From NCBI GenBank assembly GCA_016784125.1, contig JADHVI010000001.1, positions 78,417 to 142,416 on the forward strand: a stretch of DNA of 64,000 bases. Reading direction: 5' to 3'. Shown piece after piece: positions 47,264-64,000 of this stretch. Position 1 is the first letter of the stretch, and each line of letters starts with the position of its first letter. The position numbers were made by a program, and so were the translations under genes. Below the pieces are notes generated by a model. That model did no database searches, was not told the DNA's origin, and worked only from the letters and a program-made list of their open reading frames with translations. The stretch is from Candidatus Woesearchaeota archaeon. Its GTDB lineage: Archaea > Nanobdellota > Nanobdellia > Woesearchaeales > GCA-2686295.

Positions 47264-48757
47264 ATGGTCGAGAGTTATACTAAGAAAGCGGTTCGTAGTA
47301 CTGTAACAATTTTTTTAGTAGGGGTTGCATCATTAGGTGTGAGTTATCTTTTCAGATTACTTTTAGCTAGAAACTTATCTGTTGCTGAATATGGTCTTTT
47401 CTATTCTATCTTGTCATTTTTCTTTGTATTTGTTGTAATAACTAGATTGGGTTTGGGACAGGCCTTAGTCAAGTATATCTCGGAGTTTCTTGTTAAGAAA
47501 CAGTATTCAAATGTCAAAGGATCAATAATAATAACTCTCTTGACTCATTTCATCTTGTCAGCTATTGTTGGAGTAATTTTTATTTTAATATCGGGTTTTC
47601 TTGCAACGCATTATCTTAAAATGCCAGATTATCATTACCTAATAATTTTATATGCAATATATTTCATATTTTTTCCATTCCAGTCAACTCTTAGTTATAC
47701 TTTCAAAGGATTTCAGAAGATGCATTATTATTCGGTCATGGAACTTCTCCAGAACGTAATAGTCTTTGTTTTCACATTCCTTTTCTTGATAGTTTTCAAT
47801 ATGGGTCTTAAAGCTCCTTTCGTAGCACATTATTTCATATTTATTTTACCAATCATATTTGCACCTATTTTTTTCAAAAAACATTTTCCCAAGTTTACAA
47901 AGGTAAAAGCTACAATTACCAAACCACTTTTCAAGAAACTCACTCTCTTTGGAGTATCAATGGTTATAATGTCTGTTTCAACAGTTATTTTTACTAATGC
48001 AGACACAATTCTGATAACTTTCTTTCTTTCACTAGAAGACGTTGGTTTTTACCAAGCAGCTTTTCCAACAACAAAAATATTGGCCAATTTCAGTACAACC
48101 TTACTAATTGTTCTTCTTCCCCTCACATCTGAGCTTTGGGCTAGAAAGAAAATTGAGATCTTAAGAGAGGGTATAAAAGATCTTTACAAATATGTATCAT
48201 TGGTTTTGATACCTGCTTGTTTTACGATGATCATCTTTCCTGATTTAATAATAAGGATTTTGTTTGGGCCCGCTTATGAACCTGCAGCCAATGTTCTTCG
48301 AATTCTTGCCATAGCTGCACTCATTAATGTCTCTGGTGGAATTAATAGTGGTGTTTTGTCAGGTATTGGTAAACACTCAATTGTTGGCAAGATATTTTTA
48401 ACTGCGGCAGTCCTAAACATAGTTCTAAATATTATTTTAATACCAATCATTGGGATTGAAGGTGCTGCCATTGCGACACTCATATCTTTTGCAATTATAT
48501 CTGTGTGGACTTTTGTTAGTTTGAAAAAATCAGTTGGTGTGAAATTTGATATTAGAGCTTTAATTTATACTTTAGTGTCTGGCGTAATTTTTACAGCAGT
48601 CATTTTAATTCTCAAATCATCTTTACATTCAAACGTTTGGCTTGAGTTGTCCATTTCTTTAATAGTGGCATTAGTGGTTTATGTACTTTTATTATTTATT
48701 TTGAGAGTTCTTTCTTTATCAGAAATCAAAAAACTTCTTCACAGGATAAAAAGCTAA
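47264..48757 (+). CDS. MOP-superfamily oligosaccharide flippase (Wzx/polysaccharide biosynthesis protein)
   Basis: 497 aa with about 14 TM helices. The N-terminal RSTVTIFLVGVASLGVSYLFRLLLARNLSVAEYG is typical of Wzx-like flippases. Confidence 0.8.
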   Translation: MVESYTKKAVRSTVTIFLVGVASLGVSYLFRLLLARNLSVAEYGLFYSILSFFFVFVVITRLGLGQALVKYISEFLVKKQYSNVKGSIIITLLTHFILSAIVGVIFILISGFLATHYLKMPDYHYLIILYAIYFIFFPFQSTLSYTFKGFQKMHYYSVMELLQNVIVFVFTFLFLIVFNMGLKAPFVAHYFIFILPIIFAPIFFKKHFPKFTKVKATITKPLFKKLTLFGVSMVIMSVSTVIFTNADTILITFFLSLEDVGFYQAAFPTTKILANFSTTLLIVLLPLTSELWARKKIEILREGIKDLYKYVSLVLIPACFTMIIFPDLIIRILFGPAYEPAANVLRILAIAALINVSGGINSGVLSGIGKHSIVGKIFLTAAVLNIVLNIILIPIIGIEGAAIATLISFAIISVWTFVSLKKSVGVKFDIRALIYTLVSGVIFTAVILILKSSLHSNVWLELSISLIVALVVYVLLLFILRVLSLSEIKKLLHRIKS

Positions 48758-50501: not shown

Positions 50502-51734
50502 CTAAGTTTTTTTGTAAGCATTAAGAATTTTTTTTGTAACCATTTCTTTTTCAAATCTTTCTTCAAATATTTTTCGGCTTTTTATTCCAAGATCTTTTCT
50601 TATGTTTTCGTTGTTAATTAGAATATTTAGTTTCTCTACTAATTCTTCTTCATTTCTTACTAAGAAACCATTTTGTCCTACAATAACTCCTTCACTGTTT
50701 CCACCATTATCTGTTGCAATTATTGGTTTACCAAAATATGTGGCCTCCAACATTATTCTAGAAAATGGTTCTGGCCATAGAGATGATTGCACTATTGCAT
50801 CGGACTGTTTGTAAATGGATGGTATAAATTCATATCTAACATCTCCGTAGAATCTTACATTTGGACCCGCTATTTTTTCTAGTTTTTTCCTTTCAGATCC
50901 ATCTCCAAATATTAAGAGTTTTGCATCACCATTTACTTTGTTGAAAGCTCTTATGACTAATTCTGTTCCTTTGATTTTTTCAAGCACACCAATAAACACA
51001 ATTTTAACACCTTTATCTTTTAAATGAAATATTTTGTCTGAGTCTTTAATATCTATTATGTTTGGAACTCTAAAAATATTTTTCTTCTTAACACCATTTT
51101 TTATCAACATTTTTTCTGTAAATCCTGATATTGCGAAATAGTTTTGTACATTGTCTAAATTTCTATTATTTTTTTTATGATTAGAATAAACTGACATCCA
51201 GATTATAGGGTTGTATTTTACATACCAAGGCATTTTGTATTTTCCGAGGAATTTTGAATTAACTATGCATTTAACGAATTTTCCCGGATTACATTCTTCA
51301 CAAGCTTTTTTTTCTTTGTAGAATAAATTTCTTTTTGGACAAAAGTTTGTGTAGCCATTGATGGTTGCAAATGTTTTTTTGTTTATCTTAAAGTTTGGTA
51401 TGGCCGTTGTATTCAGGAAGTGTATTATATCAAAGTTTTCTTTCTTATCCAATAATGGGAGTTCTTTTTTGATTGATTTTTGAAACCAAAATAATCTTCT
51501 TAGATTATCTTTGAAAGCATTTGGATTTTCGCCTGTTTTTAGAGTTCTTACAACAGTGAATCCATCCATTTCTTCAACTCTTTTCAAGCCAGAGAAATGT
51601 GCTGTTAGGACAAACACAGTTAACCCTTTTTTCACCAGAGTCTTTGCTAGTTGATGTGCACTTATTTGACCACCACCAAACATTTTTGGAGTAAAATACT
51701 CTGTTACAAGTAAAACTTTCATTTTCTTATCCAT
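50502..51734 (-). CDS. GT4-family glycosyltransferase with Cys-containing insertion
   Basis: MKVLLVTEYFTPKMFGGGQIS (GT4 N-domain) and a C-terminal EPFSRIMLEATYFGKPIIATDNGGNSE (E-x7-E region). The insertion reads CPKRNLFYKEKKACEECNPGKFVKC. Confidence 0.8.
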   Translation of the reverse strand: MDKKMKVLLVTEYFTPKMFGGGQISAHQLAKTLVKKGLTVFVLTAHFSGLKRVEEMDGFTVVRTLKTGENPNAFKDNLRRLFWFQKSIKKELPLLDKKENFDIIHFLNTTAIPNFKINKKTFATINGYTNFCPKRNLFYKEKKACEECNPGKFVKCIVNSKFLGKYKMPWYVKYNPIIWMSVYSNHKKNNRNLDNVQNYFAISGFTEKMLIKNGVKKKNIFRVPNIIDIKDSDKIFHLKDKGVKIVFIGVLEKIKGTELVIRAFNKVNGDAKLLIFGDGSERKKLEKIAGPNVRFYGDVRYEFIPSIYKQSDAIVQSSLWPEPFSRIMLEATYFGKPIIATDNGGNSEGVIVGQNGFLVRNEEELVEKLNILINNENIRKDLGIKSRKIFEERFEKEMVTKKILNAYKKT

Positions 51735-51863: not shown

Positions 51864-53054
51864 ATGATGACCAATTTAAAAGAATATCTATTAAAAACCC
51901 TGGAACTACAGAAAGGAATTGTATTTGCTAGTAAACCAACCTTTGTTTGTAGGGGAAATTATTCTGGTCGTGATATAATTGCTAAGAATAGTGAATTTTC
52001 AGAAGATTTTGTTGATGAGAGGGGTTATGTTCCTGTCGAATTATGGTTAATGTCTCTTGTTGAAGCTGAGAATCCTGAGAAAAAAGAAGGAGAAGGATTA
52101 ACCAGCATAAGTTTAATTGAAGGAGAGGTCACTCTTAAGCAAATATCAGATGTTGCAGAAGAAGAACTTTTTGGAGTTTGGAAAACATCTTGGCCTCTAA
52201 CAAAAATTCTTGATATTGGCGGAGTTCCTAAGAAAACCAGTTTTTCAGATCAAAAAGAAGTTCCTGCAATACCACCACATATCCATGGGGGGAACATCGT
52301 TGATGGTGTGGCCATAAAACCTGGCAAAATCGAAGCATATTTCTTTCCACCTTTAAACGTTGGTCCTTATAATCGAGAGATTGGTAGAACCATTTCAAGA
52401 TTGGGATTTAAGTCAGGTGTTACAAAAGAGATATTTAAAGAAACATTAAGACATTTTGGGAAAGATGATTCTATGTATGAGTTATTAGAGCCACATATTG
52501 TCAAACCTTATTCTGGTTGGACAATGCCTGCAGGCACTATTCATTCTCCAGGACCTTGGGTTACATTTGAGGTTCAACTTCCTCAAGATGATTTTAACAA
52601 TGTTGGTTGGAAATTTGAAGATAGAATTCCTGAAGCAAACTGGGAAGAGGAATACAACAAGTTGGTTCTTAGAGGATTAAAGGATGAAGATGATCTAATT
52701 AACCAAGTACTAGATTGGGATGTGTCAACAGATCCAAATTTTAAAGATCATTATCAAAGAGAAATAAAAATTATTGAGGAAGGAGATTTTGGTCGTAGAT
52801 TCCAGATATTTTTTGATCAATTTTATGGTGAGGGTTGGGAAATAAATAGTGGTAAATCACTTACAATTAATGCAAAAGAAAAACCAATTGCGGGACTTGT
52901 TTGGTCTGGAAATGGCTCACTAAATGATAATCAAGTAAGTGTGGACAAAAACAGAGAGTTTTTTATAGTTCCACAAACATCCATAACTTTAGAAAATAAT
53001 GGCTCAGAAAAACTAATTATGTTCACAGTTGAACCAATTGGAGGTTTGAAATGA
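51864..53054 (+). CDS. Cupin-fold sugar-phosphate isomerase-like protein (class I phosphomannose-isomerase-like)
   Basis: IPPHIHGG...KPGKIEAYFF and MPAGTIHSPGPWVTFEVQLPQDD resemble the metal-binding and xPAGTxHAxG...E.Q..SD segments of type I PMI. It is the first gene of a 4-gene overlapping operon. Confidence 0.4.
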   Translation: MMTNLKEYLLKTLELQKGIVFASKPTFVCRGNYSGRDIIAKNSEFSEDFVDERGYVPVELWLMSLVEAENPEKKEGEGLTSISLIEGEVTLKQISDVAEEELFGVWKTSWPLTKILDIGGVPKKTSFSDQKEVPAIPPHIHGGNIVDGVAIKPGKIEAYFFPPLNVGPYNREIGRTISRLGFKSGVTKEIFKETLRHFGKDDSMYELLEPHIVKPYSGWTMPAGTIHSPGPWVTFEVQLPQDDFNNVGWKFEDRIPEANWEEEYNKLVLRGLKDEDDLINQVLDWDVSTDPNFKDHYQREIKIIEEGDFGRRFQIFFDQFYGEGWEINSGKSLTINAKEKPIAGLVWSGNGSLNDNQVSVDKNREFFIVPQTSITLENNGSEKLIMFTVEPIGGLK

Positions 53055-54550
53055 CCAAACTAAATGTTGACAAGACAAAAAAGATTTTGAACGACTTTGA
53101 AAACAAAACTATTTTGGTAGTCGGCGATTTTTATTTGGATGAATATATTGAAACAACAAGCGATCAATTTAGTCCAGAAGCGCCCGTACCAAGAGCAATT
53201 GTCAAATCAAAAATTCACGTTCCAGGGGCCGCAGGCAATGTTGCTTGTGTATTAAAAGAACTGGGAGCAACTGTAAAAACCGTTGGAGTTATTGGGGCAG
53301 ATAACAACGGTGATATTCTGAAATCTGATTTGGATTCTAGGGGTATTGATACTCAAGGACTAATTTTAGATAAAGAAAGACTAACTGGTACTTTCTCTCG
53401 GATACTATTATTGTTTGGTGGTAATATTAGTCAACATGTCATAAGATTTGATCATGAAAATGATTCTCCTTTATCACAAAGTACAAGAAAACAAGTTATA
53501 TCAAATTTTAGAGAGCAAGTTAAGTCTTGTGATGCTATTTTTATGGCTGATTATGATGAAACAGGTGGAACTGGATTAATCAATGATGAATTAATGGAAG
53601 AAATTATTGATTTAGCTAAATCTAATAATGTCTTAACTGTAGGAATATCTAGGCTTAACATAAAAAAATTCAAAGATTTTGATTTGATAATCACGAATGA
53701 GAAAGAAACCGAAATTGCAACAAACATAAAAATCACAGATGATGAAACTTTGTTGAAAGCAGTTGAAAATCTTAAAACCAATCTTAAAAGCAAAGTAGTT
53801 CTGGCTTCTTTGGGAAAGAAAGGTGCAATCGTTATGGATGAATCTTTAACTTTTCAACTTCCAAGTTTTGCTAAAAAAGTGGTTGATGTTTGTGGTGCTG
53901 GTGATACTATGAGTTCAGCTTTTGCTCTTTCAAAACTATCTAATGCAACTCACAGTGAGGCTTTAGAAATTGGTAGTTTTGCAGCAAGTGTGGCTGTACA
54001 AAAAGAAGGAACTGCAACTGTTTCAAGAAGTGAATTGCTAAGTGCAATTAAAAATGAATATGAATCCATCAACAAGCTTGTGACTCCTGTACAATTAAGC
54101 TCATTAGTTAAAGGTTTTAAGAAGCAAGGGAAAAAAGTTGTTCTCACAAATGGTTACTTTGATTTTATTCATGCAGGAATAATTCAATTTTTACAAGAAG
54201 CAAAGAAACAAGGAGATATATTGATAGTTGCTTTGAATAGTGATGAATCAACAAGATCAAATAAAGGCACCGATAGACCTCTATTAAACCAGGGTGATCG
54301 AGCCAAGATTATGTCTGCTTTCAGCTTTGTTGACTATGTGGTTATTTTTGAAGAACTGACGCCTATAAAGCTCATACAAACCCTCCATCCCGATGTTCTT
54401 GTGAAAGGAGGAACTCATTCAAAAGAAGAGATTGTTGGCAAAGACTTATTTGAGGATATGAGTTCTAAAGCTCTTCCTTTGATGGGGCCTTCAACCGAAA
54501 GCATGATTGATTTTATTAAAAATAGTAAGAAATCATTACATGAAAAATGA
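53051..54550 (+). CDS. hldE: Bifunctional HldE/RfaE-like protein: heptose-7-phosphate kinase (PfkB) fused to a cytidylyltransferase-like domain with degenerate HxGH
   Basis: ATGA overlap with the upstream gene. Domain I: LVVGDFYLDEYIE...SPEAPVP...PGAAGNVA and DVCGAGDT. Domain II: VVLTNGYFDFIHAGIIQFLQEAKKQGDILIVALNSD...PDVLVKGG. The HxGH position reads HAGI (54170..54181). Confidence 0.8.
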   Translation: MTKLNVDKTKKILNDFENKTILVVGDFYLDEYIETTSDQFSPEAPVPRAIVKSKIHVPGAAGNVACVLKELGATVKTVGVIGADNNGDILKSDLDSRGIDTQGLILDKERLTGTFSRILLLFGGNISQHVIRFDHENDSPLSQSTRKQVISNFREQVKSCDAIFMADYDETGGTGLINDELMEEIIDLAKSNNVLTVGISRLNIKKFKDFDLIITNEKETEIATNIKITDDETLLKAVENLKTNLKSKVVLASLGKKGAIVMDESLTFQLPSFAKKVVDVCGAGDTMSSAFALSKLSNATHSEALEIGSFAASVAVQKEGTATVSRSELLSAIKNEYESINKLVTPVQLSSLVKGFKKQGKKVVLTNGYFDFIHAGIIQFLQEAKKQGDILIVALNSDESTRSNKGTDRPLLNQGDRAKIMSAFSFVDYVVIFEELTPIKLIQTLHPDVLVKGGTHSKEEIVGKDLFEDMSSKALPLMGPSTESMIDFIKNSKKSLHEK

Positions 54551-55458
54551 AGACTAAAGATAGACCTTTGGAAAGTCATACATCTGTTATAAGTAGTTTT
54601 ATGGATTTTGCAAATGTTCCTGAAAAAGAAAGAGAACTTCTAAAAAGAGAGTTGAAGAGATACATTGAAACACGAATTGTTAAAGGGAAATGGTGTCATC
54701 CTTTTATTACTAAGTTTCACACTGATTGGTACAGAGAATTTTATAGAATAATTGATGGCACAGATCCTTACAAGTTGATTAAGGATAATTCTAATATTCA
54801 AGCGAAACAGCTTCTTAAAAACTTTAAATCAGATAGCATAAGAGATTCTGTGATGCTCACTATTATAGGTAACAAAATAGATTTTGGAGCTTGTATGGAT
54901 AGCATATACAATTTAGAGCAACTTAAAGCAGACATTCAAAATGTTAAAAGGGAAAATTTTTCAGTTAATCAAGTTGAAGAGATGTTAAGCGAGATTAAAT
55001 CTGCGAAAAATGTTCTTTATCTCTTTGATAATAATGGAGAAATGATATTCGATACTTTGCTACTTGATTTCATCGTAAAACATGTTGATAAGAAAAATGT
55101 TTTTCTTGTGGGAAAAGATAAACCTATGTTGAATGATGTGACAGTTGCAGATTTAAAATCTGAAAAATTAGACGAATTTGGTCTCATTGTTTCAACAGGT
55201 AGTGACTGTTTTGGTTTGCATGAAGAAGATGTATCTGATGATTTCAAGAAGCTCTTGAAATCTGCTGATTTAATTATTGCTAAAGGTCAAGCTTACTTGG
55301 AATTCTTTTCAGAGTATAATTTCACAAATGTTTTTCATGTATTGCGTGTTAAACAAGAAATTGTTGGTGATGAATTGCCTACTTTGACACCAGGCATGAA
55401 TGTAGTTATGAAATCAACAAATTATGCTGGGAAAGGTGTTGATTATGTTTGGAGTTGA
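54547..55458 (+). CDS. DUF89/ARMT1-like metal-dependent sugar-phosphate phosphatase
   Basis: ATGA overlap. LYLFDNNGEMIFDTLLLDF (the D-N-x-G-E signature) and IAKGQAYLEF (KGxxNYE-like). Confidence 0.65.
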   Translation: MKTKDRPLESHTSVISSFMDFANVPEKERELLKRELKRYIETRIVKGKWCHPFITKFHTDWYREFYRIIDGTDPYKLIKDNSNIQAKQLLKNFKSDSIRDSVMLTIIGNKIDFGACMDSIYNLEQLKADIQNVKRENFSVNQVEEMLSEIKSAKNVLYLFDNNGEMIFDTLLLDFIVKHVDKKNVFLVGKDKPMLNDVTVADLKSEKLDEFGLIVSTGSDCFGLHEEDVSDDFKKLLKSADLIIAKGQAYLEFFSEYNFTNVFHVLRVKQEIVGDELPTLTPGMNVVMKSTNYAGKGVDYVWS

Positions 55459-55463
55459 TAATT

Positions 55464-55952
55464 ATGGGTGTTGAAAAAATAAAAACGAGAGAAGAAATTA
55501 AGGAACTATGTGTTAAACTTAAAGCAGTTGGTTTAACAATTGTTACAACTAATGGTAGTTATGATATTTTACATGCAGGGCATGTTAGAATGCTTGAAGA
55601 AGCTAAGAAACAAGGGGATATTCTCATAGTTGGTTTGAACAGTGATAAATCGGTTCAAGCATACAAAAACAAAGATAGGCCAATTATACCTGAGCAATAC
55701 AGAGCAGAACTTTTAGCTGCATTGGAATGTGTAGATTATGTGACTCTTTTTGATGAAACCGTTCCCATGGAATTTATCAAATCGGTTGTTCCAGATATTC
55801 ACGTCAATTATGCTGGATATGGAGGGGATTGTGTTGAGAAACCTCTTCTTGATGAAATAGGCGCAAAGCTTCATTTAGTTGGAGATTTGTGTGACTTTTC
55901 AACAACAAAAATTGTAGATAAGATAATAAAGATTTATTCTAAACAAAACTAG
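55464..55952 (+). CDS. Stand-alone cytidylyltransferase-family nucleotidyltransferase (RfaE domain II-like, intact HxGH)
   Basis: GGAG Shine-Dalgarno, ATG at 55464. TNGSYDILHAGHVRMLEEAKKQGDILIVGLNSDKS...RP. HAGH lies at 55572..55583. It shares an identical EAKKQGDILIV stretch with the fused domain of the upstream gene. Confidence 0.8.
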   Translation: MGVEKIKTREEIKELCVKLKAVGLTIVTTNGSYDILHAGHVRMLEEAKKQGDILIVGLNSDKSVQAYKNKDRPIIPEQYRAELLAALECVDYVTLFDETVPMEFIKSVVPDIHVNYAGYGGDCVEKPLLDEIGAKLHLVGDLCDFSTTKIVDKIIKIYSKQN

Positions 55953-55956
55953 TTGA

Positions 55957-57057
55957 TTAAGAAAGTTTATTAATTGTTTTTTTCACTTCTTTTACACTGA
56001 TTAGTTTCATACATTTCTGGAATTCTTTATTGATGCAAATTGGCATGATACCTTTTTCATTGATAATACACGGGCTACATGAAATCTTGTGATAAATTGA
56101 CACGTTTCCTTTGCCGAAAGGACCCCATCTCACAGGAGTATTTGGTCCGAATAATCCAATTGTCTTACATCCCTGTGCTGCAGCCACATGCATTGGTCCT
56201 GTATCATTGCTAATGAAAATATTGCACTTTTCAATCAAATCAAATGATTCTGTCAAACTAATTTTCCCTGCAGAGTTTATAGACTTTGTATTCATTAGAC
56301 TTCGAACTTCTTCGATAAGTTTACTCTCTGCTGGCGAACCTGTAAATATGACCACATAATTTTTATTTGTTAAGTAGTCTGCCAATTCTGCAAATCTTTC
56401 CTTTGGCCACATTCTTTCTCTGACGGATTCTGCAGCACCAGTGCATATGCCTGCAAGTTTATCGTTCTTTTTCACACCATTTTTTCTTAAGAATATATCT
56501 ACTTGTTCTTTCTCTTTTTTATTAACTTTTAGCTTTTCTAGTTTACTAATTGTTTTTTCAATTCCTACTTGTCTTCCCAAATCCATATACATTTCAACCA
56601 TGTGTTTGCTCTTTGAAAATAGGCTGGTTTTATTATACAGAATTGATCTTGCTTGGTTTGAAAATCCAATCCTAAATTTACCTATCCACCAAGACAGTAG
56701 TGCTGATGAATTAAGATAAGGTTCTAGATCAAACACTAAGTCAAATTTTCTAAGAAATTTAAACAAATTTTCTTCTTCAAATAAAATTATTTCATCAATA
56801 AAGCTCTGATGTTCATATACTGTGAAATTTCGTTTATGAGCAATAACTGTTATATTAGATTTTGGATATTTTTCCTTTATGGCTTTAATCAAAGGAAGTG
56901 ATGTTACGGAGTCTCCTATAGCCCAAAGTTTCACAAATGCAATGCTTTTAACATCAAATTTATCTTTGGAAAACAGTTTGGATAACCCACCAATTATCCA
57001 GCTTACGGGGCCTATAATATATTTGTCCGTTGTTCTAAGAACTTTGATCGAGCTCAT
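55957..57057 (-). CDS. GT9-family glycosyltransferase (heptosyltransferase-like) 1
   Basis: LWAIGDSVTSLPLIKAIKEKYP, NDTGPMHVAAAQGCKTIGLFGPNTPVRWGP. Confidence 0.8.
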   Translation of the reverse strand: MSSIKVLRTTDKYIIGPVSWIIGGLSKLFSKDKFDVKSIAFVKLWAIGDSVTSLPLIKAIKEKYPKSNITVIAHKRNFTVYEHQSFIDEIILFEEENLFKFLRKFDLVFDLEPYLNSSALLSWWIGKFRIGFSNQARSILYNKTSLFSKSKHMVEMYMDLGRQVGIEKTISKLEKLKVNKKEKEQVDIFLRKNGVKKNDKLAGICTGAAESVRERMWPKERFAELADYLTNKNYVVIFTGSPAESKLIEEVRSLMNTKSINSAGKISLTESFDLIEKCNIFISNDTGPMHVAAAQGCKTIGLFGPNTPVRWGPFGKGNVSIYHKISCSPCIINEKGIMPICINKEFQKCMKLISVKEVKKTINKLS

Positions 57058-57389
57058 TTCTTTTTCTTCTCTTTCTCTATGGCCACTGTTCTCACAAGTT
57101 TTGTTATGTTTTGATCTAGTTTTTCGAACTTTACATACATTCTAAAGATTAAGTAGAACACCAAAACTATGCTAACATAAACTGCGATATCTATTGGTCT
57201 GCCAATTCCAACTTTGTTAGATAACCATCCTGTAAATGCCGGCAAAACAGCAACTATTACAACTGCAGCCCATATTATTGTCCAGAAAGTGAATTCTCTA
57301 AGTCTCATCTGTTTGTCTTTAAATCTGAGAAGTACTCTGCTATATGCAAAGATAACAAATAATATGACTAATACTTGAATTATTTCCAT
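57054..57389 (-). CDS. DUF2304-like small membrane protein
   Basis: 111 aa with 3-4 TM helices and a GRPIDIAVY motif, plus a charged tail. 4-nt overlap with the downstream GT9 gene. Confidence 0.55.
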   Translation of the reverse strand: MEIIQVLVILFVIFAYSRVLLRFKDKQMRLREFTFWTIIWAAVVIVAVLPAFTGWLSNKVGIGRPIDIAVYVSIVLVFYLIFRMYVKFEKLDQNITKLVRTVAIEKEKKKK

Positions 57390-57495
57390 TTTAGTTTTAT
57401 GAATATATTGGTTTTTTTAAACTTTTTCTAAATATGGGTTTTGTCGCCAATCAAAAAGTATATAAATCAATCATAACATCTTTCTTAATGGGGGT

Positions 57496-60348
57496 ATGAT
57501 GACAAAGAAGAAAAAAGATGATGATCTTTCTATAAACTTTTCAGGCATAGGTTCAAAACTTAAAAAGTTTGAATTTCCTAAGAATCAAGCTTGGATTATA
57601 ATACTCTTAATAGCCATAGCCATTTTCTTTTCAATTTATTACAGATCTTACTCTTACTATCTTCCAGTAACTGATGACTGGGCTTATAACAACATCTATA
57701 ATAATGTTCGAAGTCAAGTTGCTAGCAATATCAATCTTCAATATCCTAATCTTCCTACTGATAGCAAGAACCAAATGATCAATGAGGAAGTTAGCAAATT
57801 TTTACAGCAACAAGGTCCATCTTTGCAAGCACAAATTGAAGGTCTTTCAAAAGATATGAAGACAAGATTCCAAAATGATGAGGGTCAAACATATTTATTG
57901 GCTATTGATCCCTATTTCTATTATAGATACTCCAGAAATATTATTGAGAAAGGTCATTATGGTGATTCAGTAGATGAAAATGGTCATTTTGATTCACATG
58001 TATTGGGGCCTGGTGGAAAATATGTTCCAGATACTTTTCATTCATATTTTGGAGCTTTCTTTCATCGCTTTGTAAACATATTTGCTAATAATAGTTTGAT
58101 GACAAACTTCTTTTTTATACCGGTATTCTTATCTGCACTCGCAGTTATTCCTGCATTCTTCATCGCAAGAAAGAAAGTTGGTTTATTTGGAGGATTCATT
58201 GCAGGTATGATTGTTGCAATCCATCCTGCTTTCATTGGAAGAACTGCTGGAGGATTCGCTGATACAGATCCCTACAATGTATTATTCCCGCTTTTTATAG
58301 CTTGGCTGTTTATAGAGGCGTTTGAATCAGATAGTTGGAAAAAACAATTGGGTTTATTGGCTGGTGCGGGTTTCTTAACAGGGCTTTACAGTTTTGCTTG
58401 GAGTGGCTGGTGGTACATATTTGACTTTCTATTATTAGCCATAATTATATTCTTAGTTTATTTAGTTGTAAAATCATTAGTTCAATACAAAGGGTTTAAG
58501 AAAATCTGGAATAAAGATTTCAAAAACGCTTTGACAATGTTAGTGTTGTTCATAGTATTATCAGGTATATTTGTCTCTTTGTTTTCAGGTGCCTCACAGT
58601 TTCAGAACTTCATTGATGGTCCTTTAAAATTTAAAGTTATAAAACAAGCAGCCAAGCCAGATCTTTGGCCAAATGTTTACACTACTGTTGCAGAACTTAA
58701 CGCTGCATCCATTAATTCCATCATAAAACAGATTGGTGGTAAATTGTTCTTCTTTATTGCCTGTATTGGAGTCATACTTACACTTTTCAAGAAGAAGAAT
58801 GTTTCGAAATTGGACTTTGTAACTTTAGGTATAGCCGTTATAGTATTCGCTTTGCTAGTTTCAAAGGAAGCCATAAAATTATCTCCTGTAAAGTACTTAG
58901 CAATATTTGCGATCCCAGTTATTGTAGGACTTATTATTTTGCTTAAAGACAAAAGAAATACTGACGTAAAATATGCCTTGTTCCTAACTATTTGGTTTGC
59001 GGGAACCATCTATGCTAGTACTCAAGGAACAAGGTTCGTTTTACTAATGGTGCCTGCCTATGCCATTGCATTAGGAATTGCTTTTGGCACAGTTCAATCG
59101 TGGCTTACAAACTGGACTGCTAAAGAATTCAAATTTAACAGGAAAATTATGGGTGCTGTGCTCATTGTTCTGTTGCTTTTATTACTAATTGGGCCAATGA
59201 AATCAGCTCATAATACTGCTAAAAGCGAGATTCCAAGTATGACTGACGGTTGGTGGAACACACTAACAAATATACAAAAGAACTCTGCTGAGAATGCTAT
59301 TATAACATCTTGGTGGGATTTTGGCCATTGGTTCAAAGCAGTTGCAGATAGAGCTGTAACTTTTGATGGTGGTAGTCAGAACAGACCTCAAGCTCATTGG
59401 GTTGGAAAACTATTGATGTCAAATAATGAAGATGAGTCTATAGCTATCTTACGTATGCTTGACTGTGGTGCGAACAATGCCTTTGATGAAGTAAACCTAA
59501 AATATGATGACACTGAAACATCAGTCGATGTTATTTATGAAATTATAATGAAAAATGATGTTGAAGCTAAAGCATATTTATTAGAAAAAGGTTTTACAGA
59601 AGAGGAATCTGTAACAGTTATTAAGTATACTCATTGTTCTCCTCCAGAAGCATTCTTAATTACTTCAGAAGATATGGTTGGAAAGGCGGGTGTTTGGTCT
59701 CACTTTGGAAGTTGGAATTTTGACAGATCATTCATATATAATAATGTTCGAAAGCAAGAATATCAAGAGTCTATAGATATTCTAACAACCAGATTTGGTT
59801 TTACAGAAGAAAAAGCGGCTGATTATTTTTATGAAGTTCAAGCTATTACATCTAATCAGGAAGCGAATAATTGGATTGCTCCTTGGCCTAATTATGGCAC
59901 TCCAAGTATAAGAGGTTGCAAGAACGAATCTGATATTGTAACTTGTAATATGAATATTGGAATTGGCGAAAGCAATCAAGGTCAATCAGTGAGTATAGCT
60001 GCTGGTGTGTTTAACCTTTCAGATCCTTCAAATTCCAGATTTGTATTGGCTTTCATAGACAGAAATTCTGGTTTAGTTGCTGCAACTCAAGAAGCAAAAC
60101 CTGCTAATGTAGTTATATTTGATGAAGAAGGAGAGCACACATATATTTTGGGCGGAGATATATTCTTAGATCTCGTCTATGAGAAAGAAATGAATAAAGC
60201 TTTAATTACACATCCCTCTCTATCAAAATCATTGTTTACAAAGTTGTTCTTCTTTGAAGGCAGACACACATCACATTTTGAGAAATTCAGTGATATGAAC
60301 TCAATGACTGGTGGAAGAATTCTCGTGTGGAAAGTTCTTTGGGATTAA
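57496..60348 (+). CDS. aglB: Archaeal oligosaccharyltransferase AglB (STT3 homolog)
   Basis: 950 aa with about 13 N-terminal TM helices and the WWDYG-type motif TSWWDFGHWF, followed by a large C-terminal soluble domain. Confidence 0.9.
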   Translation: MMTKKKKDDDLSINFSGIGSKLKKFEFPKNQAWIIILLIAIAIFFSIYYRSYSYYLPVTDDWAYNNIYNNVRSQVASNINLQYPNLPTDSKNQMINEEVSKFLQQQGPSLQAQIEGLSKDMKTRFQNDEGQTYLLAIDPYFYYRYSRNIIEKGHYGDSVDENGHFDSHVLGPGGKYVPDTFHSYFGAFFHRFVNIFANNSLMTNFFFIPVFLSALAVIPAFFIARKKVGLFGGFIAGMIVAIHPAFIGRTAGGFADTDPYNVLFPLFIAWLFIEAFESDSWKKQLGLLAGAGFLTGLYSFAWSGWWYIFDFLLLAIIIFLVYLVVKSLVQYKGFKKIWNKDFKNALTMLVLFIVLSGIFVSLFSGASQFQNFIDGPLKFKVIKQAAKPDLWPNVYTTVAELNAASINSIIKQIGGKLFFFIACIGVILTLFKKKNVSKLDFVTLGIAVIVFALLVSKEAIKLSPVKYLAIFAIPVIVGLIILLKDKRNTDVKYALFLTIWFAGTIYASTQGTRFVLLMVPAYAIALGIAFGTVQSWLTNWTAKEFKFNRKIMGAVLIVLLLLLLIGPMKSAHNTAKSEIPSMTDGWWNTLTNIQKNSAENAIITSWWDFGHWFKAVADRAVTFDGGSQNRPQAHWVGKLLMSNNEDESIAILRMLDCGANNAFDEVNLKYDDTETSVDVIYEIIMKNDVEAKAYLLEKGFTEEESVTVIKYTHCSPPEAFLITSEDMVGKAGVWSHFGSWNFDRSFIYNNVRKQEYQESIDILTTRFGFTEEKAADYFYEVQAITSNQEANNWIAPWPNYGTPSIRGCKNESDIVTCNMNIGIGESNQGQSVSIAAGVFNLSDPSNSRFVLAFIDRNSGLVAATQEAKPANVVIFDEEGEHTYILGGDIFLDLVYEKEMNKALITHPSLSKSLFTKLFFFEGRHTSHFEKFSDMNSMTGGRILVWKVLWD

Positions 60349-60391
60349 TCTTAGGAAATCTTTATAAACGTTTTTCTGTTGATAACTTTTT

Positions 60392-61099
60392 ATGTGGCAA
60401 TGGTTTTTATCAAAAGTTGACAGAGCTCACGCAAAAAGGAGATCTTCTAGTAATAAAGATATAATTTGTGACTCAGTTCCTAATGGGAATTTCTCTACGA
60501 TTGTTGATTTGGGAGGGTCAGATGGCAAACTAATTTTAAGAGTTGCGTCCAAGGTTAATGGCAAAGAATTATTTGTTTTAGATCATAACCCTAATTATTT
60601 GGCTAAATGCCCTAAGAATATTAAAGCCATAAAAATAGATTTAAATGAAAAGCTTCCTTTGAAAACAAATCAATTCGATTTAGTTATATCAAGTCAAGTA
60701 ATTGAGCATTTACAAGATCCTGATGGTTTTGTAAAAGAGATTCACAGAATATTAAAACCAAACGGATTGTTGATACTAACAACTCCAAATCTTGCTTCGA
60801 TTCATGCAAGATTGTTGCTTTTATTTGGTTCAACTCCTTCCTGTCTTCATCCTTCTCAACTGCGTATGGGTGTTTATTCTAAGAAAAAATATACTCCTTA
60901 TCTCATAGACCAATATGGTCATAAATCAGTGTTTACTGTTAAAGGTCTTAAGAAGCTTTTTACACATTATGATTTTAATGTAGCAACGTCTCGTTCTTAC
61001 AACTTATTTTTAATGCCTGAGTTTATTTCAAAAATAATTTGCGCAATTTTTCATTTTGGTAACTCTCAGGTTATTATAGCGAAGAAGAATAGACGCTAA
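60392..61099 (+). CDS. SAM-dependent methyltransferase (type 11)
   Basis: IVDLGGSDGKL, FDLVISSQVIEHLQDPDGFVKEIHRILKPNGLLILTTPN. Confidence 0.7.
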   Translation: MWQWFLSKVDRAHAKRRSSSNKDIICDSVPNGNFSTIVDLGGSDGKLILRVASKVNGKELFVLDHNPNYLAKCPKNIKAIKIDLNEKLPLKTNQFDLVISSQVIEHLQDPDGFVKEIHRILKPNGLLILTTPNLASIHARLLLLFGSTPSCLHPSQLRMGVYSKKKYTPYLIDQYGHKSVFTVKGLKKLFTHYDFNVATSRSYNLFLMPEFISKIICAIFHFGNSQVIIAKKNRR

Positions 61100-61152
61100 T
61101 TTTTCTTAAAAACCAAAGATATAAATATCTTCCTTCACATCCTCACTTTGAA

Positions 61153-62082
61153 ATGTCAGTTGATATATCCATAGTAATTCCAGTTTACAATGAAGAAAGG
61201 AATATAACGCCCCTTTACAATAAAATAGTTTCTGCCTTAAAACCTTTGAAAAAAACTTTCGAACTAATGTTTGTTGATGATGGGAGCGTGGATCATACTT
61301 TTGGAGTCATTCAATCACTTCATAAGAAAGATTCTAGAATTAGAGTTATTAGATTTCAAAGAAACTTCGGGAAGTCATCTGCCTACATGGCTAGTTTTAA
61401 GGAATGCAAAGGAAGAACAATTATAACTATGGATGGTGATTTACAAGATGACCCTGCAGAAATTCCTCGAATGATGGATGCTCTAAAGAGATTAGATTTG
61501 GTTATTGGTTGGAAGTTTCCAAGAAGAGATTCTATTAGTAGAACAATTCCGTCGAAGATATTTAATTGTTTAAACTACAAGTTCTTTGGTCTTAAACTCC
61601 ATGACTATGATTGTGGTTACAGAGCTATGAAATCAGAAGTTGTCCAAGATTTGAATCTGTATGGTGATCTTTATCGTTATATCCCTGCATTAGTTTCTCG
61701 TGCAGGCTTCAAAGTTGGTGAAATAAAGGTTAGACATCATCCGAGAAAATTTGGGAAAAGTAAGTATGGTTCTAAAAGATTGTTAACAGGCGCATTGGAT
61801 TTATTAACTGTTAAATTTATAACTGACTTTAATCAGAGACCGCTTCATTTATTTGGCGTTGCAGGTACAATCTTCTTCATATTAGGGGTTATTGCAGATT
61901 TATTTGTTTTATCTTACAAAATATTTTTTGGACACTCATTTACATCTCACGTTGCGCTTTTGATACTTGGAGTTCTATTAATAATTCTTGGAATCCAGTT
62001 TCTAGGTATTGGTTTGATTGGTGAATTAGTTAGTTCTTCAAAAAAGGATATTAACAGATATACTATTAGAGAACAATTATGA
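61153..62082 (+). CDS. GT2 polyprenol-phosphate glycosyltransferase (DPM1/GtrB/ArnC-like) with two C-terminal TM helices
   Basis: ISIVIPVYNEE, MFVDDGSVDHT, TMDGDLQDDP, then C-terminal hydrophobic helices. Confidence 0.85.
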   Translation: MSVDISIVIPVYNEERNITPLYNKIVSALKPLKKTFELMFVDDGSVDHTFGVIQSLHKKDSRIRVIRFQRNFGKSSAYMASFKECKGRTIITMDGDLQDDPAEIPRMMDALKRLDLVIGWKFPRRDSISRTIPSKIFNCLNYKFFGLKLHDYDCGYRAMKSEVVQDLNLYGDLYRYIPALVSRAGFKVGEIKVRHHPRKFGKSKYGSKRLLTGALDLLTVKFITDFNQRPLHLFGVAGTIFFILGVIADLFVLSYKIFFGHSFTSHVALLILGVLLIILGIQFLGIGLIGELVSSSKKDINRYTIREQL

Positions 62083-62126
62083 TTCTACAGTAAAGTATTT
62101 AATTACATAACTATTTCTCGAGTTTA

Positions 62127-63086
62127 ATGATACTGGTTACTGGTGGAGCAGGATTTATAGGGAGTCATGTTTGTGATAGACTTTTGGCTCAAGGTAAAAA
62201 AGTAATATGTGTTGATAATCTAAACACTTATTATGATCCTAAAACTAAAAAAAAGAATCTTTCTTACAGTTTGAAAAACAAGAATTTTAAGTTCTACAAA
62301 TTAGACATTACTCATTACAATCAATTAACTAAGATATTTGCTAAGCATAAAATTACTGCCATAATCCATTTGGCAGCTAGAGCTGGCGTGAGACCTTCCA
62401 TAAGTAATCCACACATATACGAATCAGTCAATATTAAAGGAACTCTTAATCTACTGGATTTAGCAAAGAAATTTGGAGTCAAGAAATTTATATTTGGTTC
62501 TTCCTCAAGTATTTATGGTGCTAACAAGAAAGTTCCATTTTCAGAAACAGATTCTGTAAACAACCAGATTAGTCCATATGCTGTCACAAAAAGAGCTGGT
62601 GAGCTTTTTTGTAAAACTTATCATGAGTTGTATGGAATAAACATAACTGCTTTAAGATTCTTCACAGTCTATGGTCCAAGAGGCAGACCAGAGATGGCTC
62701 CTTACAGGTTTGTAGATAAGATTCACAGAGGTTTACCAATTGATATGTACGGAGATGGATCTTCTGCAAGAGACTATACTTATGTATCAGATATTGTTGA
62801 TGGAATAATTGTGGCTCTGAAAAAAGATTTCAAATTTGAGATAATCAATCTTGGTGATTCAAGAATTATCAAACTAAAATCATTCATTGAATTAATAGAA
62901 CGAATAGTTGGTAAACAGGCCAAAATTATTCATAAAGATATGCCTGATGGAGATGTACCAATTACTTATGCAGATATAAGTAAAGCCAAAAAATTATTAG
63001 GTTACAAACCCCAAGTCAATATTGAAGATGGTATGAGAAAATTCTATGATTGGTACAAGCGTTTTGGTGTGGGAAAATCATTATAA
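62127..63086 (+). CDS. NAD-dependent epimerase, UDP-glucuronate 4-epimerase-like
   Basis: MILVTGGAGFIGSHVCD, NLNTYYDPKTKKKNL, SSSSIYG, YAVTKRAGE, FFTVYGPRGRPEMA. Confidence 0.75.
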   Translation: MILVTGGAGFIGSHVCDRLLAQGKKVICVDNLNTYYDPKTKKKNLSYSLKNKNFKFYKLDITHYNQLTKIFAKHKITAIIHLAARAGVRPSISNPHIYESVNIKGTLNLLDLAKKFGVKKFIFGSSSSIYGANKKVPFSETDSVNNQISPYAVTKRAGELFCKTYHELYGINITALRFFTVYGPRGRPEMAPYRFVDKIHRGLPIDMYGDGSSARDYTYVSDIVDGIIVALKKDFKFEIINLGDSRIIKLKSFIELIERIVGKQAKIIHKDMPDGDVPITYADISKAKKLLGYKPQVNIEDGMRKFYDWYKRFGVGKSL

Positions 63087-63122
63087 GAAATCTTTAAATA
63101 AGATGTTGTTCTAACTATTAAC

Positions 63123-64000
63123 ATGAAAGCATTAGTTATATCTGTAGCGGGAATTGGCAATACTTTAATGGCCACTCCTTTAATACATGAGCTGAGGAAG
63201 CAAGGTAAAGAAGTCCACGTTCTAGTCGGCAATAAGCCGGGTGCAGAAGCTCTGAAAAACAACGATGACGTTAAAAAAGTCATTATCATGAGCAAGAGCA
63301 AATTCAAAGCTCTCCTGCCTAATCTTCGTCTGTTACGATCTTTAAAGAAAGCCAATTACGATGAAAGCTACATGGTTTTTCCAGGAAATAGATGGTTCTT
63401 CAATCTGATTTCTTTCTTAGCAGGTGCAAAGAAAAGATATGCTCATCGTTATCCAAACAAAAATTTTCGTTCTCTTTCGTTCTTGAACAGTAAGTTAGTT
63501 GAAATGCAAAAAACTCATGATGTTATTCAAAATCTAAATTTGCTGGAAAAAGGTTACAAGAATTCCAAACCCAGAATGGTTCTAAACGCAGGATCTGTTA
63601 AAAAGAAGGCAATAATTGGTATTCATCCGGGTAGCAGCACTGCTTCTGATATGGAGATGAAGCGCTGGCCTGAAAAATATTATGCAGAACTCATAAACAA
63701 GCTCAAATATCCTGTCAGAGTATTTATCGGACCTGACGAAGAAGATTCATTTAAGCTCCTCAAGAAATACTTGACAAGAGAGGTTGAAGAGATAAGGGAA
63801 AAGTCCATATTCAAAGTTGCAAAAAAAATAAAAGAATGCAAGCAGTTCATTGCAAATGATTCTGGTCTGATGCACATTGCAACTGCAGTTGAAGTTCCTG
63901 TTATAGGCATATTTGGTCCTACTGATCCTATGAGAAATGATCCTTTTACAGACAATAAAATTGTCTTGACACATAAAATGTCATGTCAACCCTGCAGTCA
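63123..64000 (+). CDS. GT9-family glycosyltransferase (heptosyltransferase-like) 2; C-terminus outside the window
   Basis: Absent from the ORF track because it runs off the window. The ATG at 63123 reads MKALVISVAGIGNTLMATPLIHELRKQGKEVHVLV...IGIHPGSS...KRWPEKYYAELI...ANDSGLMHIATAVEVPVIGIFGPTDPMRNDPF. Confidence 0.8.
   Translation, partial: MKALVISVAGIGNTLMATPLIHELRKQGKEVHVLVGNKPGAEALKNNDDVKKVIIMSKSKFKALLPNLRLLRSLKKANYDESYMVFPGNRWFFNLISFLAGAKKRYAHRYPNKNFRSLSFLNSKLVEMQKTHDVIQNLNLLEKGYKNSKPRMVLNAGSVKKKAIIGIHPGSSTASDMEMKRWPEKYYAELINKLKYPVRVFIGPDEEDSFKLLKKYLTREVEEIREKSIFKVAKKIKECKQFIANDSGLMHIATAVEVPVIGIFGPTDPMRNDPFTDNKIVLTHKMSCQPCS

Follow-up and report, generated by a model that had tools for sequence, protein, structure and literature searches.

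GT9 heptosyltransferase-family genes around aglB in a Woesearchaeota-type archaeon: a predicted route for heptose into dolichol-linked glycans

What would enzymes of glycosyltransferase family 9 (GT9), characterized so far mainly on lipopolysaccharide (LPS) cores, do in an archaeon, where a Kdo2-lipid A acceptor is not expected? The question is raised by a 64,000-nt stretch of DNA (herein the window; contig JADHVI010000001.1, C26:78417-142416) from a Woesearchaeota-type DPANN archaeon with a genome of 953 kb (32 contigs, 83.6% complete, 33.7% G+C). An open reading frame map and profile searches bear out what an earlier note had read from the letters: two GT9 genes, herein GT9-1 and GT9-2, bracket an intact aglB, which encodes the oligosaccharyltransferase AglB, together with genes for a methyltransferase, a GT2 glycosyltransferase and a short-chain dehydrogenase/reductase (SDR), and 4 nt separate the GT9-1 stop from the end of a heptose-activation operon (positions 51864-55952). 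A profile search of the contigs finds no other GT9 gene in the genome. We consider it rather probable, judging by gene order and family assignments, that GT9-1 adds heptose to a dolichol phosphate (Dol-P)-linked sugar that is then used by AglB; the arrangement points to heptose on the surface glycans of these archaea, and we regard the window as the center of a native N-glycosylation island.

Conserved context was sought by searching 80 related loci with the island proteins and by profiling 151 genomes from 143 genera, evenly drawn from the host's order. Relatives carry a recurrent one-strand block consisting of AglB, a PpgS-like GT2, the small membrane protein DUF2304, GT9 and often a PMT_2 glycosyltransferase of the GT-C class, after which come a cupin, HldD, HldA, GmhB and HldC; in locus L023 each gene was checked and bears out this order. 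Among GT9-1-type loci with enough flank, the PpgS-like GT2 lies ≤1.5 kb upstream in 34 of 43 and AglB ≤3 kb upstream in 21 of 31. AglB occurs in 139 of the 151 genomes and GT9 in 72 (68 of the 143 genera). Because at least 22 of the 72 GT9-bearing genomes have a GT9 within 6 kb of AglB (a lower bound, as distances were taken from the matches listed; the assemblies are fragmented), the GT9-AglB arrangement is not chance. In a relative (L099/L100) whose proteins are 61-64% identical to those of the window (GT9-2, 61%), both GT9s again flank AglB, with a canonical GmhA and HldE directly beside GT9-1. The earlier note had proposed that heptose is added to a dolichol-linked N-glycan precursor; the proposal gains from an old, conserved GT9-AglB link, a repeated two-GT9 layout and a GT9 distribution that tracks the heptose nucleotidyltransferase, and the transfer itself stands at the strength given above.

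GT9 is not what holds this block together. When the AglB loci of 14 GT9-less genomes of the order were taken for comparison, AglB, GT2 and DUF2304 were adjacent and in the same direction in 13, so what these loci conserve is this trio and not GT9. A GT4 comes next after DUF2304 in 8 of these 13 loci, including that of G060, a member of the host's own genus with neither GT9 nor an HldC-type nucleotidyltransferase. Since GT4 holds the slot in GT9-less loci, and G060 lacks both GT9 and the heptose enzyme, GT9-1 and GT4, both soluble GT-B enzymes by prediction, replace one another in a single slot of the operon as the heptose pathway is present or absent.

Across the order, GT9 and the HldC-type nucleotidyltransferase (called with TIGR02199 at E up to 1e-25) occur together in 51 genomes, the nucleotidyltransferase alone in 3, GT9 alone in 21 and neither in 76; the odds ratio is 61.5 (Fisher P = 2.6e-19), by a statistic that ignores shared ancestry. 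The two genes lie within 10 kb of each other in 34 genomes, and a strong HldA kinase is present in 8 of the 21 genomes with GT9 alone. The other 13, out of the 72 with GT9, lack HldC and a strong HldA alike. Given this odds ratio alongside these 13 genomes, the GT9-heptose link is strong but not absolute.

GT9-1 matches PF01075 with 149.2 bits, far over the cut-off of 22 bits, and its AlphaFold2 (AF2) model (pLDDT 92.3) has the GT-B fold. The nearest structure in Foldseek is 3TOV, an uncharacterized Veillonella GT9 (E = 3.8e-23, TM score 0.76-0.84); WaaF (1PSW) matches with E = 1.8e-20 and WaaC with E = 1e-15. In a structure-informed alignment D49 of GT9-1 (Glu in some orthologs) falls on the catalytic carboxylate D13 of WaaC. 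The equivalents of WaaC K192, E222, D261, T262, G263 and H266, which we take to be donor-site residues with roles known from WaaC-ADP-heptose structures, are kept (K/R, E/D, D, T/S, G, H) in GT9-1, in GT9-2 and in their clades.

The phylogeny proposed in the earlier note, of both GT9s against WaaC, WaaF and WaaQ, was built by maximum likelihood with a quick method from 124 sequences. GT9-1 and GT9-2 fall into separate clades with starred support values of 98 and 96, respectively, and E. coli WaaC, WaaF and WaaQ/WaaU cluster with bacterial sequences outside both. The GT9-1 clade (68 sequences) is mostly DPANN, with Methanocaldococcus indicus, Altiarchaeota, Micrarchaeota and some bacteria of the candidate phyla radiation (CPR); GT9-1 has more than 1100 homologs, and among the best 120 (41-92% identity) all named ones are from Woesearchaeota or Nanoarchaeota. 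The best heptosyltransferase equivalog model, TIGR02195, scores 127.5 bits with GT9-1 and 93.3 bits with GT9-2 (cut-off 134.6), and other models fall far below theirs. Judged by sequence, GT9-1 and GT9-2 are orthologs of neither WaaC, WaaF nor WaaQ. They resemble these CAZy GT9 enzymes (HepI, HepII and HepIII) in Pfam family, in the GT-B fold and catalytic carboxylate of GT9-1, in the donor-site residues and in adjoining HldE/HldC/HldD-type activation genes; unlike them, they belong to clades of their own and have AglB, Dol-P sugar synthases and GT-C enzymes for neighbors. They further differ in an N-terminal helix of ~35 residues (RxxDK) conserved in the GT9-1 clade, in four C-terminal cysteines in both and in an Asn in GT9-2. 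The helix was considered as a transmembrane segment and rejected, as its mean Kyte-Doolittle hydropathy (≤1.2) is too low; it is at most amphipathic.

The heptose operon consists of four overlapping genes (the bicupin and HldE genes by 4 nt) and is convergent, tail-to-tail, with GT9-1. The canonical five-family pathway set is incomplete here: the GmhA and GmhB families are replaced, and the kinase, nucleotidyltransferase and epimerase are homologous with scores below cut-off. No SIS_2/GmhA protein (PF13580) is found in the host genome, and no HAD-type GmhB in the operon, where a DUF89 phosphatase holds the place that HAD GmhB has in relatives. The first gene encodes a 396-aa bicupin for which sequence searches against Pfam, NCBIfam and the PDB, with E allowed up to 10, give no match. 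Its AF2 model, built from an alignment of 31 homologs (pLDDT 95.5), has type I phosphomannose isomerases (PMIs; 1ZX5, 1QWR and 5ZUW, including the Salmonella enzyme) as top Foldseek matches, and members of its family are fused to HldC-type nucleotidyltransferase or DUF89 domains. PMI, and GmhA acting on sedoheptulose-7-P, perform the same ketose-to-manno-aldose chemistry. The HldE-like protein (PRK11316, 312.9 bits, cut-off 521; TIGR02198, 238 bits) has a degenerate nucleotidyltransferase domain, with HAGI and STE (...GPSTE) at the motif positions that are intact, as HAGH and STT (...CDFSTT), in the stand-alone HldC-type enzyme. Because a PMI fold and heptose-pathway fusions come together with HldE-, HldC-, DUF89- and HldD-like homologs, the host very probably makes nucleoside diphosphate (NDP)-glycero-manno-heptose by a partly noncanonical route.

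The bicupin family (homologs P0302, P0305, P0313 and P0327) also turns up, with 42-46% identity, in transcriptomes of eukaryotes, among them the sponges Sycon ciliatum and Oopsacas minuta, as well as in CPR bacteria, Aenigmarchaeota, Verrucomicrobiota and Planctomycetes.

In the pathway that we propose, the donor would be made by a five-enzyme route, as homology, fold and fusions indicate: PMI-fold isomerase, HldE kinase domain, DUF89 phosphatase, stand-alone HldC-type nucleotidyltransferase and an HldD-like 6-epimerase encoded 8 kb downstream. A PpgS/GacI-like GT2 with its GacJ-family DUF2304 partner would, judging by family, charge dolichol phosphate with a first sugar at the cytoplasmic face, as AglK or AglJ does in euryarchaea; we take AglK and AglC to serve Dol-P N-glycan assembly in Methanococcus. 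The soluble GT-B enzyme GT9-1, in the slot held by GT4 in heptose-less relatives, would then transfer heptose onto the Dol-P-linked sugar, a step suggested by position and co-occurrence. Further additions by the GT4 and the methyltransferases are possible, after which a Wzx-like or EamA-pair flippase would turn the lipid-linked glycan over and AglB would transfer it to Asn of surface proteins. GT9-2, predicted to be cotranscribed with aglB, most probably works on a second Dol-P-sugar, which the ArnC-like GT2 next to it would make, and the product of GT9-2 would pass to the flippase-like protein and PMT_2 GT-C encoded just downstream; we place it on this branch because an ArnC-like GT2 of ~310 aa, LPG_synthase_TM and PMT_2 GT-C are the recurring neighbors of its clade.

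Several observations weigh against this pathway. In addition to the shared ancestry that the co-occurrence statistic leaves out and the 13 GT9-bearing genomes with neither HldC nor a strong HldA, one such genome, G017 (98% complete), lacks both and yet carries a GT2-DUF2304-GT9-1-type block. In the closed 774-kb genome G025, which has a strong HldA-type kinase, a search relaxed to E 1e-5 finds no HldC-type nucleotidyltransferase; G025 either uses a different donor or activates heptose-1-P with some other nucleotidyltransferase. In the host, HldE, HldC and HldD all score below the NCBIfam equivalog cut-offs. The PpgS-like GT2 lies 12.6 kb away from DUF2304 and GT9-1, whereas GT2 and DUF2304 are adjacent in relatives (13 of 14 GT9-less loci and most GT9 loci). 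PMT_2 GT-C genes are conserved neighbors too, and the neighborhood cannot part an N-glycan precursor from other glycoconjugates of the island. As for GT9-2, Asn (GIGN motif) replaces the catalytic Asp in each of the 12 clade members aligned, and no heptose genes lie within 7 kb of the clade members in loci L101 and L102, which adjoin FdtA/DegT-type or GT2/GT4 genes instead. The (F/L)xxGxSTT or "STTR5" motif of Tang et al. was tried as a guide to the donor nucleotide (ADP, CDP or UDP) and gave no call, its Arg position not being alignable with confidence. Besides its HldA-type kinase, G025 carries EamA-EamA-GT2-GT2-DUF2304-GT9 and, behind it, two further GT9 genes (regions C1:332000-342000, L106, and C1:771875-772798).

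One alternative is that one or both GT9s use a non-heptose nucleotide sugar and the heptose pathway serves another enzyme, an explanation that we think improbable overall and likelier for GT9-2 than for GT9-1. The GT9-bearing genomes without recognizable HldA or HldC speak for it, as do the Asn at the base position of GT9-2, its heptose-free loci and the fact that every LPS heptosyltransferase equivalog cut-off is missed. The controls point the same way: Synechococcus elongatus and Bacteroides thetaiotaomicron both have GT9, and only Synechococcus of the two has the HldC-type enzyme. Against a non-heptose donor stand the strength of the co-occurrence, with GT9 often directly adjoining HldC, and the retention in both GT9s of the residues that contact ADP-heptose in WaaC; moreover, a genome that maintains a five-gene heptose route has no GT9 genes besides these two, and no other obvious heptose user is present. 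The donor of GT9-2 is less certain than that of GT9-1, because the catalytic Asp is missing and the clade is not always near heptose genes.

The conserved PMT_2 genes bring in a second alternative, somewhat less improbable than the last and still unlikely in our view: that the heptose enters a product not handled by AglB, such as a surface polysaccharide, a glycolipid or lipoglycan, or an O-glycan or other glycan decoration that the PMT_2 GT-C attaches outside the cell with a Dol-P donor, and that proximity to aglB marks only a general glycosylation island. A PMT_2 GT-C directly follows GT9 in relatives such as L023 and stands beside HldD in this island; a GT2-DUF2304-GT9-HldE block occurs in an AglB-less Patescibacteria (CPR) genome (L049); an ArnE/F-like EamA pair adjoins the PpgS-like GT2; and the bacterial pairs GacI/GacJ and PpgS/Rv3632 supply GT-C enzymes with monosaccharide donors and do not prime glycans. 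What tells against such a product is that no other unit is as well conserved as the AglB-GT2-DUF2304 trio, which frequently has no PMT_2 close by, that in most loci GT9 stands directly behind the trio on the strand of AglB, and that a soluble GT-B enzyme requires a cytoplasmic acceptor, as extension of a lipid-linked primer would provide.

Both archaeal GT9 clades share a C-terminal CxxC...C...C motif (C327, C330, C341 and C349 in GT9-1) that is absent from E. coli WaaC, WaaF and WaaQ and is, from its sequence, probably a metal-binding knuckle. It recalls what we take to be the iron finger of the bacterial autotransporter heptosyltransferases (BAHTs) TibC and Aah, and a metal-binding Cys cluster may be common to the two groups. 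TibC is also among the structural matches of GT9-1 (TM score ~0.55-0.58, E = 8e-10) and is, as predicted for the archaeal enzymes, a GT-B heptosyltransferase with a non-LPS acceptor; the acceptor of the BAHTs is a protein, and they form dodecamers. Direct heptosylation of proteins in the cytoplasm, as TibC and Aah perform on autotransporters, would fit these two features and is nevertheless very improbable: 3TOV, WaaF and WaaC are far closer in structure (TM score ~0.55 for TibC), the island has no autotransporter-like gene, and the steady neighbors of the GT9s are lipid-carrier enzymes (GT2, DUF2304, AglB, GT-C and flippases).

DUF2304 had been described in the earlier note as a membrane protein coupled to GT9. 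The coupling to GT9-1 stands, as the DUF2304 stop and the GT9-1 start overlap by 4 nt, which implies translational coupling; the protein nonetheless belongs to the GacJ/Rv3632 family, and its usual neighbor is the PpgS-like GT2. DUF2304 may also tether a soluble GT-B enzyme to the membrane. In this genus it is parted from GT2 and lies directly upstream of the slot enzyme, which is GT9-1 here and GT4 in G060 (L085:13523-15006).

The earlier note had named a recent, silent bacterial insertion as an outcome that would undo its reading. For GT9-1 a recent insertion is largely excluded by native base composition and by the many DPANN genera in its clade, and for the cluster as a whole we hold it to be most unlikely. 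In favor of an insertion, GT9 is an overwhelmingly bacterial family, the homologs of GT9-2 beyond two close ones (80% and 61% identity) are a mixture of bacteria and DPANN at ≤40%, its G+C is slightly raised, and in comparison with G060 some 8.9 kb including GT9-2 and the HldD-like gene lie between AglB and EamA-EamA-GT2. On the other side, G+C in the cluster is native (GT9-1 0.328, GT9-2 0.371, genome 0.337), the reading frames are intact and translationally coupled, the GT9-1 clade extends across dozens of DPANN genera with synteny to archaeal AglB kept, and both GT9s flank AglB in the relative at 61-64% identity. The part of GT9-2 inside the window has 37.1% G+C, and its neighbors 32-35%.

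The 8.9-kb segment (L003:6809-15666, equal to C26:138808-147665) lies mostly beyond the window and holds the methyltransferase, the ArnC-like GT2, the SDR, GT9-2, two methyltransferases, LPG_synthase_TM, PMT_2 and the HldD-like gene; in G060 (L085), EamA-EamA-PpgS-like GT2 directly follows AglB. The segment looks like a block insertion or rearrangement. In an AR6-type DPANN locus, an AglB-led array contains a 650-aa GT9-GT2 fusion beside a PMT_2 GT-C (L101:12030-13982); the fusion supports the view that GT9 and GT2 work together.

How does such a pathway compare with known ones? A published account of euryarchaeal N-glycosylation describes glycans built on Dol-P, with a Dol-P glycosyltransferase acting first and soluble enzymes extending from nucleotide sugars (PMC11407970). 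The systems of Methanococcus (AglK/AglC/AglB) and Haloferax (AglJ/G/I/E/B with AglD/R/S) resemble the island in being AglB-centered, with a GT2 Dol-P initiator (predicted here) and soluble extenders, and the final mannose of Haloferax, for which that account describes a second Dol-P-sugar synthase, a flippase-like protein and a GT-C (PMC11407970), parallels the GT9-2 branch. Unlike those systems, the extender here is a GT9 instead of a GT2 or GT4, with heptose as the predicted sugar, and the initiating GT2 is PpgS/GacI-like with a GacJ-family partner. We know of no GacJ-like partner in the characterized Agl pathways. In bacteria, the polyprenyl-phosphate GlcNAc synthase GacI has a lower Km for the lipid when GacJ is bound in a complex with it, and Rv3632 stimulates PpgS (bioRxiv 10.1101/180810). 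The loci of Streptococcus pyogenes (GacI/GacJ/GacL) and Mycobacterium tuberculosis (PpgS/Rv3632/Rv3779) share with ours a small GT2, here a predicted polyprenyl-phosphate N-acetylhexosamine (HexNAc) synthase, a DUF2304 protein, here a candidate activator, and a GT-C. They differ in that the archaeal pair is linked to AglB and a GT-B enzyme (GT9 or GT4) comes next, which suggests extension of the Dol-P-sugar beyond a monosaccharide donor, and in that this genome couples DUF2304 to GT9-1 with the GT2 elsewhere.

Heptose would not be a new component of archaeal N-glycans, as the earlier note had supposed, for that same account lists it in the N-glycan of Thermoplasma acidophilum (PMC11407970). 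Yelton et al. (2013) proposed that an archaeal (Iplasma) ADP-heptose cluster feeds S-layer glycosylation (PMC3750248). These precedents provide an experimentally shown archaeal heptose N-glycan and the idea of a heptose cluster serving the S-layer; they concern Thermoplasmatales, not DPANN, and the portions used name no transferase. According to a summary (PMC11461863), Tang et al. (Science 2024) found archaeal heptose enzymes functional and NDP-heptoses made, and left their purpose open. Searches pairing heptosyltransferase with DPANN or Woesearchaeota, and AglB with DPANN, found no paper on GT9 genes in AglB operons of DPANN archaea. What is new would be the recruitment of GT9 enzymes to lipid-linked glycan assembly in archaea; our analysis adds the GT4/GT9 slot swap, the order-wide statistics, an Asn-type GT9-2 clade with partners of its own and the rearranged two-GT9 layout.

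GT9 genes in the AglB operon across roughly half of the order's genera would offer a concrete answer to the purpose of archaeal heptose, namely, lipid-linked surface glycans, and would widen the acceptor range of the GT9 family. With the heptose pathway gained or lost in parallel, the GT4/GT9 swap at a fixed slot would show how N-glycan composition changes in reduced genomes. A broader reading, which we put forward only tentatively and consider doubtful as a whole, is that both GT9 clades form an unrecognized functional class of GT9 acting on Dol-P-linked monosaccharides, not on lipid A-Kdo. What the GacI/GacJ-like pair makes would be extended by GT9-1 into a heptose-containing donor for AglB; GT9-2 would extend what the ArnC-like GT2 makes, possibly by a base-independent mechanism or on a different acceptor, and this second Dol-P-disaccharide would reach the PMT_2 GT-C by way of the MprF-like flippase protein. 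If this broader reading were true, the purpose of archaeal NDP-heptose would be found, and the enzymes of LPS cores and of N-glycans would belong to one toolkit of DPANN archaea and CPR bacteria.

The features of the island are collected in Table 1. All catalytic motifs of AglB are intact (DPY138, DTDPY256, WWDFG606 and a DK-type motif at 624-638, D624...GK638). The spacer between DUF2304 and aglB, which contains a TATATAAA box ~30 nt ahead of the aglB start as read from the sequence, probably holds divergent promoters. The label "uronate epimerase" given to the SDR in the earlier note proves to have been a guess, as GalE is its best match and every model scores below cut-off. GT9-2 matches PF01075 with E = 4e-27 for the part in the window and 1.2e-27 (97.3 bits) for the full protein. 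Beyond the window end follow two methyltransferases, the LPG_synthase_TM (flippase-like) protein and a convergent PMT_2 GT-C; next comes an SDR that best matches ADP-glyceromanno-heptose 6-epimerase (TIGR02197, 245.8 bits, cut-off 274.6) and is thus HldD-like, and further on two small EamA proteins (an ArnE/F-like pair) and a 241-aa GT2, whose top NCBIfam match is PpgS (polyprenyl-phospho-HexNAc synthase, 179 bits) and whose second is AglJ. In one relative (L004), a copy 59% identical to the window's GT4 adjoins GT9-1 and HldE.

Table 1. Features of the glycosylation island, in window positions (functions are predictions)
Feature	Position	Strand	Basis
Wzx/MATE-type polysaccharide flippase, candidate translocase for lipid-linked glycan	47264..48757	+	PF01943 2.4e-30, PF13440
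GT4 glycosyltransferase, candidate for a further glycan sugar	50502..51734	-	PF00534 8.4e-32
Bicupin with phosphomannose-isomerase fold, predicted sedoheptulose-7-P isomerase replacing GmhA	51864..53054	+	AF2 and Foldseek
HldE-like heptose-7-P kinase fused to degenerate nucleotidyltransferase domain	53051..54550	+	PRK11316, TIGR02198, motifs
DUF89/ARMT1 metal-dependent phosphatase, predicted GmhB stand-in	54547..55458	+	PF01937 6e-44; NF040824 172.7 bits
Stand-alone HldC-type heptose-1-P nucleotidyltransferase	55449..55952	+	TIGR02199 148.2 bits (cut-off 181.5), motifs
GT9-1, 366 aa, predicted NDP-heptose:Dol-P-sugar heptosyltransferase	55957..57057	-	PF01075 1.7e-43
DUF2304 small membrane protein (GacJ/Rv3632 family), predicted activator/partner of polyprenyl-phosphate sugar synthase	57054..57389	-	PF10066 3.1e-26, 92.1 bits
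A+T-rich divergent intergenic region, 106 bp, DUF2304/aglB	57390..57495	.	Sequence read directly
AglB oligosaccharyltransferase (STT3 family), 950 aa	57496..60348	+	PF02516 1.1e-43 (150.7 bits), PF21436
Class I S-adenosylmethionine (SAM) methyltransferase, probably sugar-methylating (predicted)	60392..61099	+	PF13489, PF08241
ArnC/PgfS/GtrB-like GT2, predicted second dolichol-phosphate sugar synthase	61153..62082	+	NF007986 189.5 bits, PgfS 153, AglJ 80.5, all below cut-off
SDR NDP-sugar epimerase/dehydratase	62127..63086	+	PF01370 1.1e-67; GalE 207 bits, TviC 144 bits, all below cut-off
GT9-2, full gene 325 aa	63123..64000 (window part; full gene L003:9540-10517, ends ~100 nt beyond the window)	+	PF01075

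A cultured organism carries a related cluster: in the hyperthermophilic methanogen Methanocaldococcus indicus SL43 (L045, NZ_CP186926 1163900-1184988) the order is HldC-HldA-GmhB-GT9-GT9-HldD-GT9-GT4, behind which the other strand encodes a GT2, one more glycosyltransferase and a sulfotransferase. A genome profile search finds no GT9 in M. jannaschii. The SL43 heptose/GT9 cluster makes the question experimentally accessible. A further modification is seen in some relatives, where a NodU/CmcH-type carbamoyltransferase (PF02543 and PF16861), absent from the host genome, stands by AglB or DUF2304 (L085:11224-12984, L099:4301-6067, L091:4444-6171), which hints at carbamoylated glycans in the relatives that carry it.

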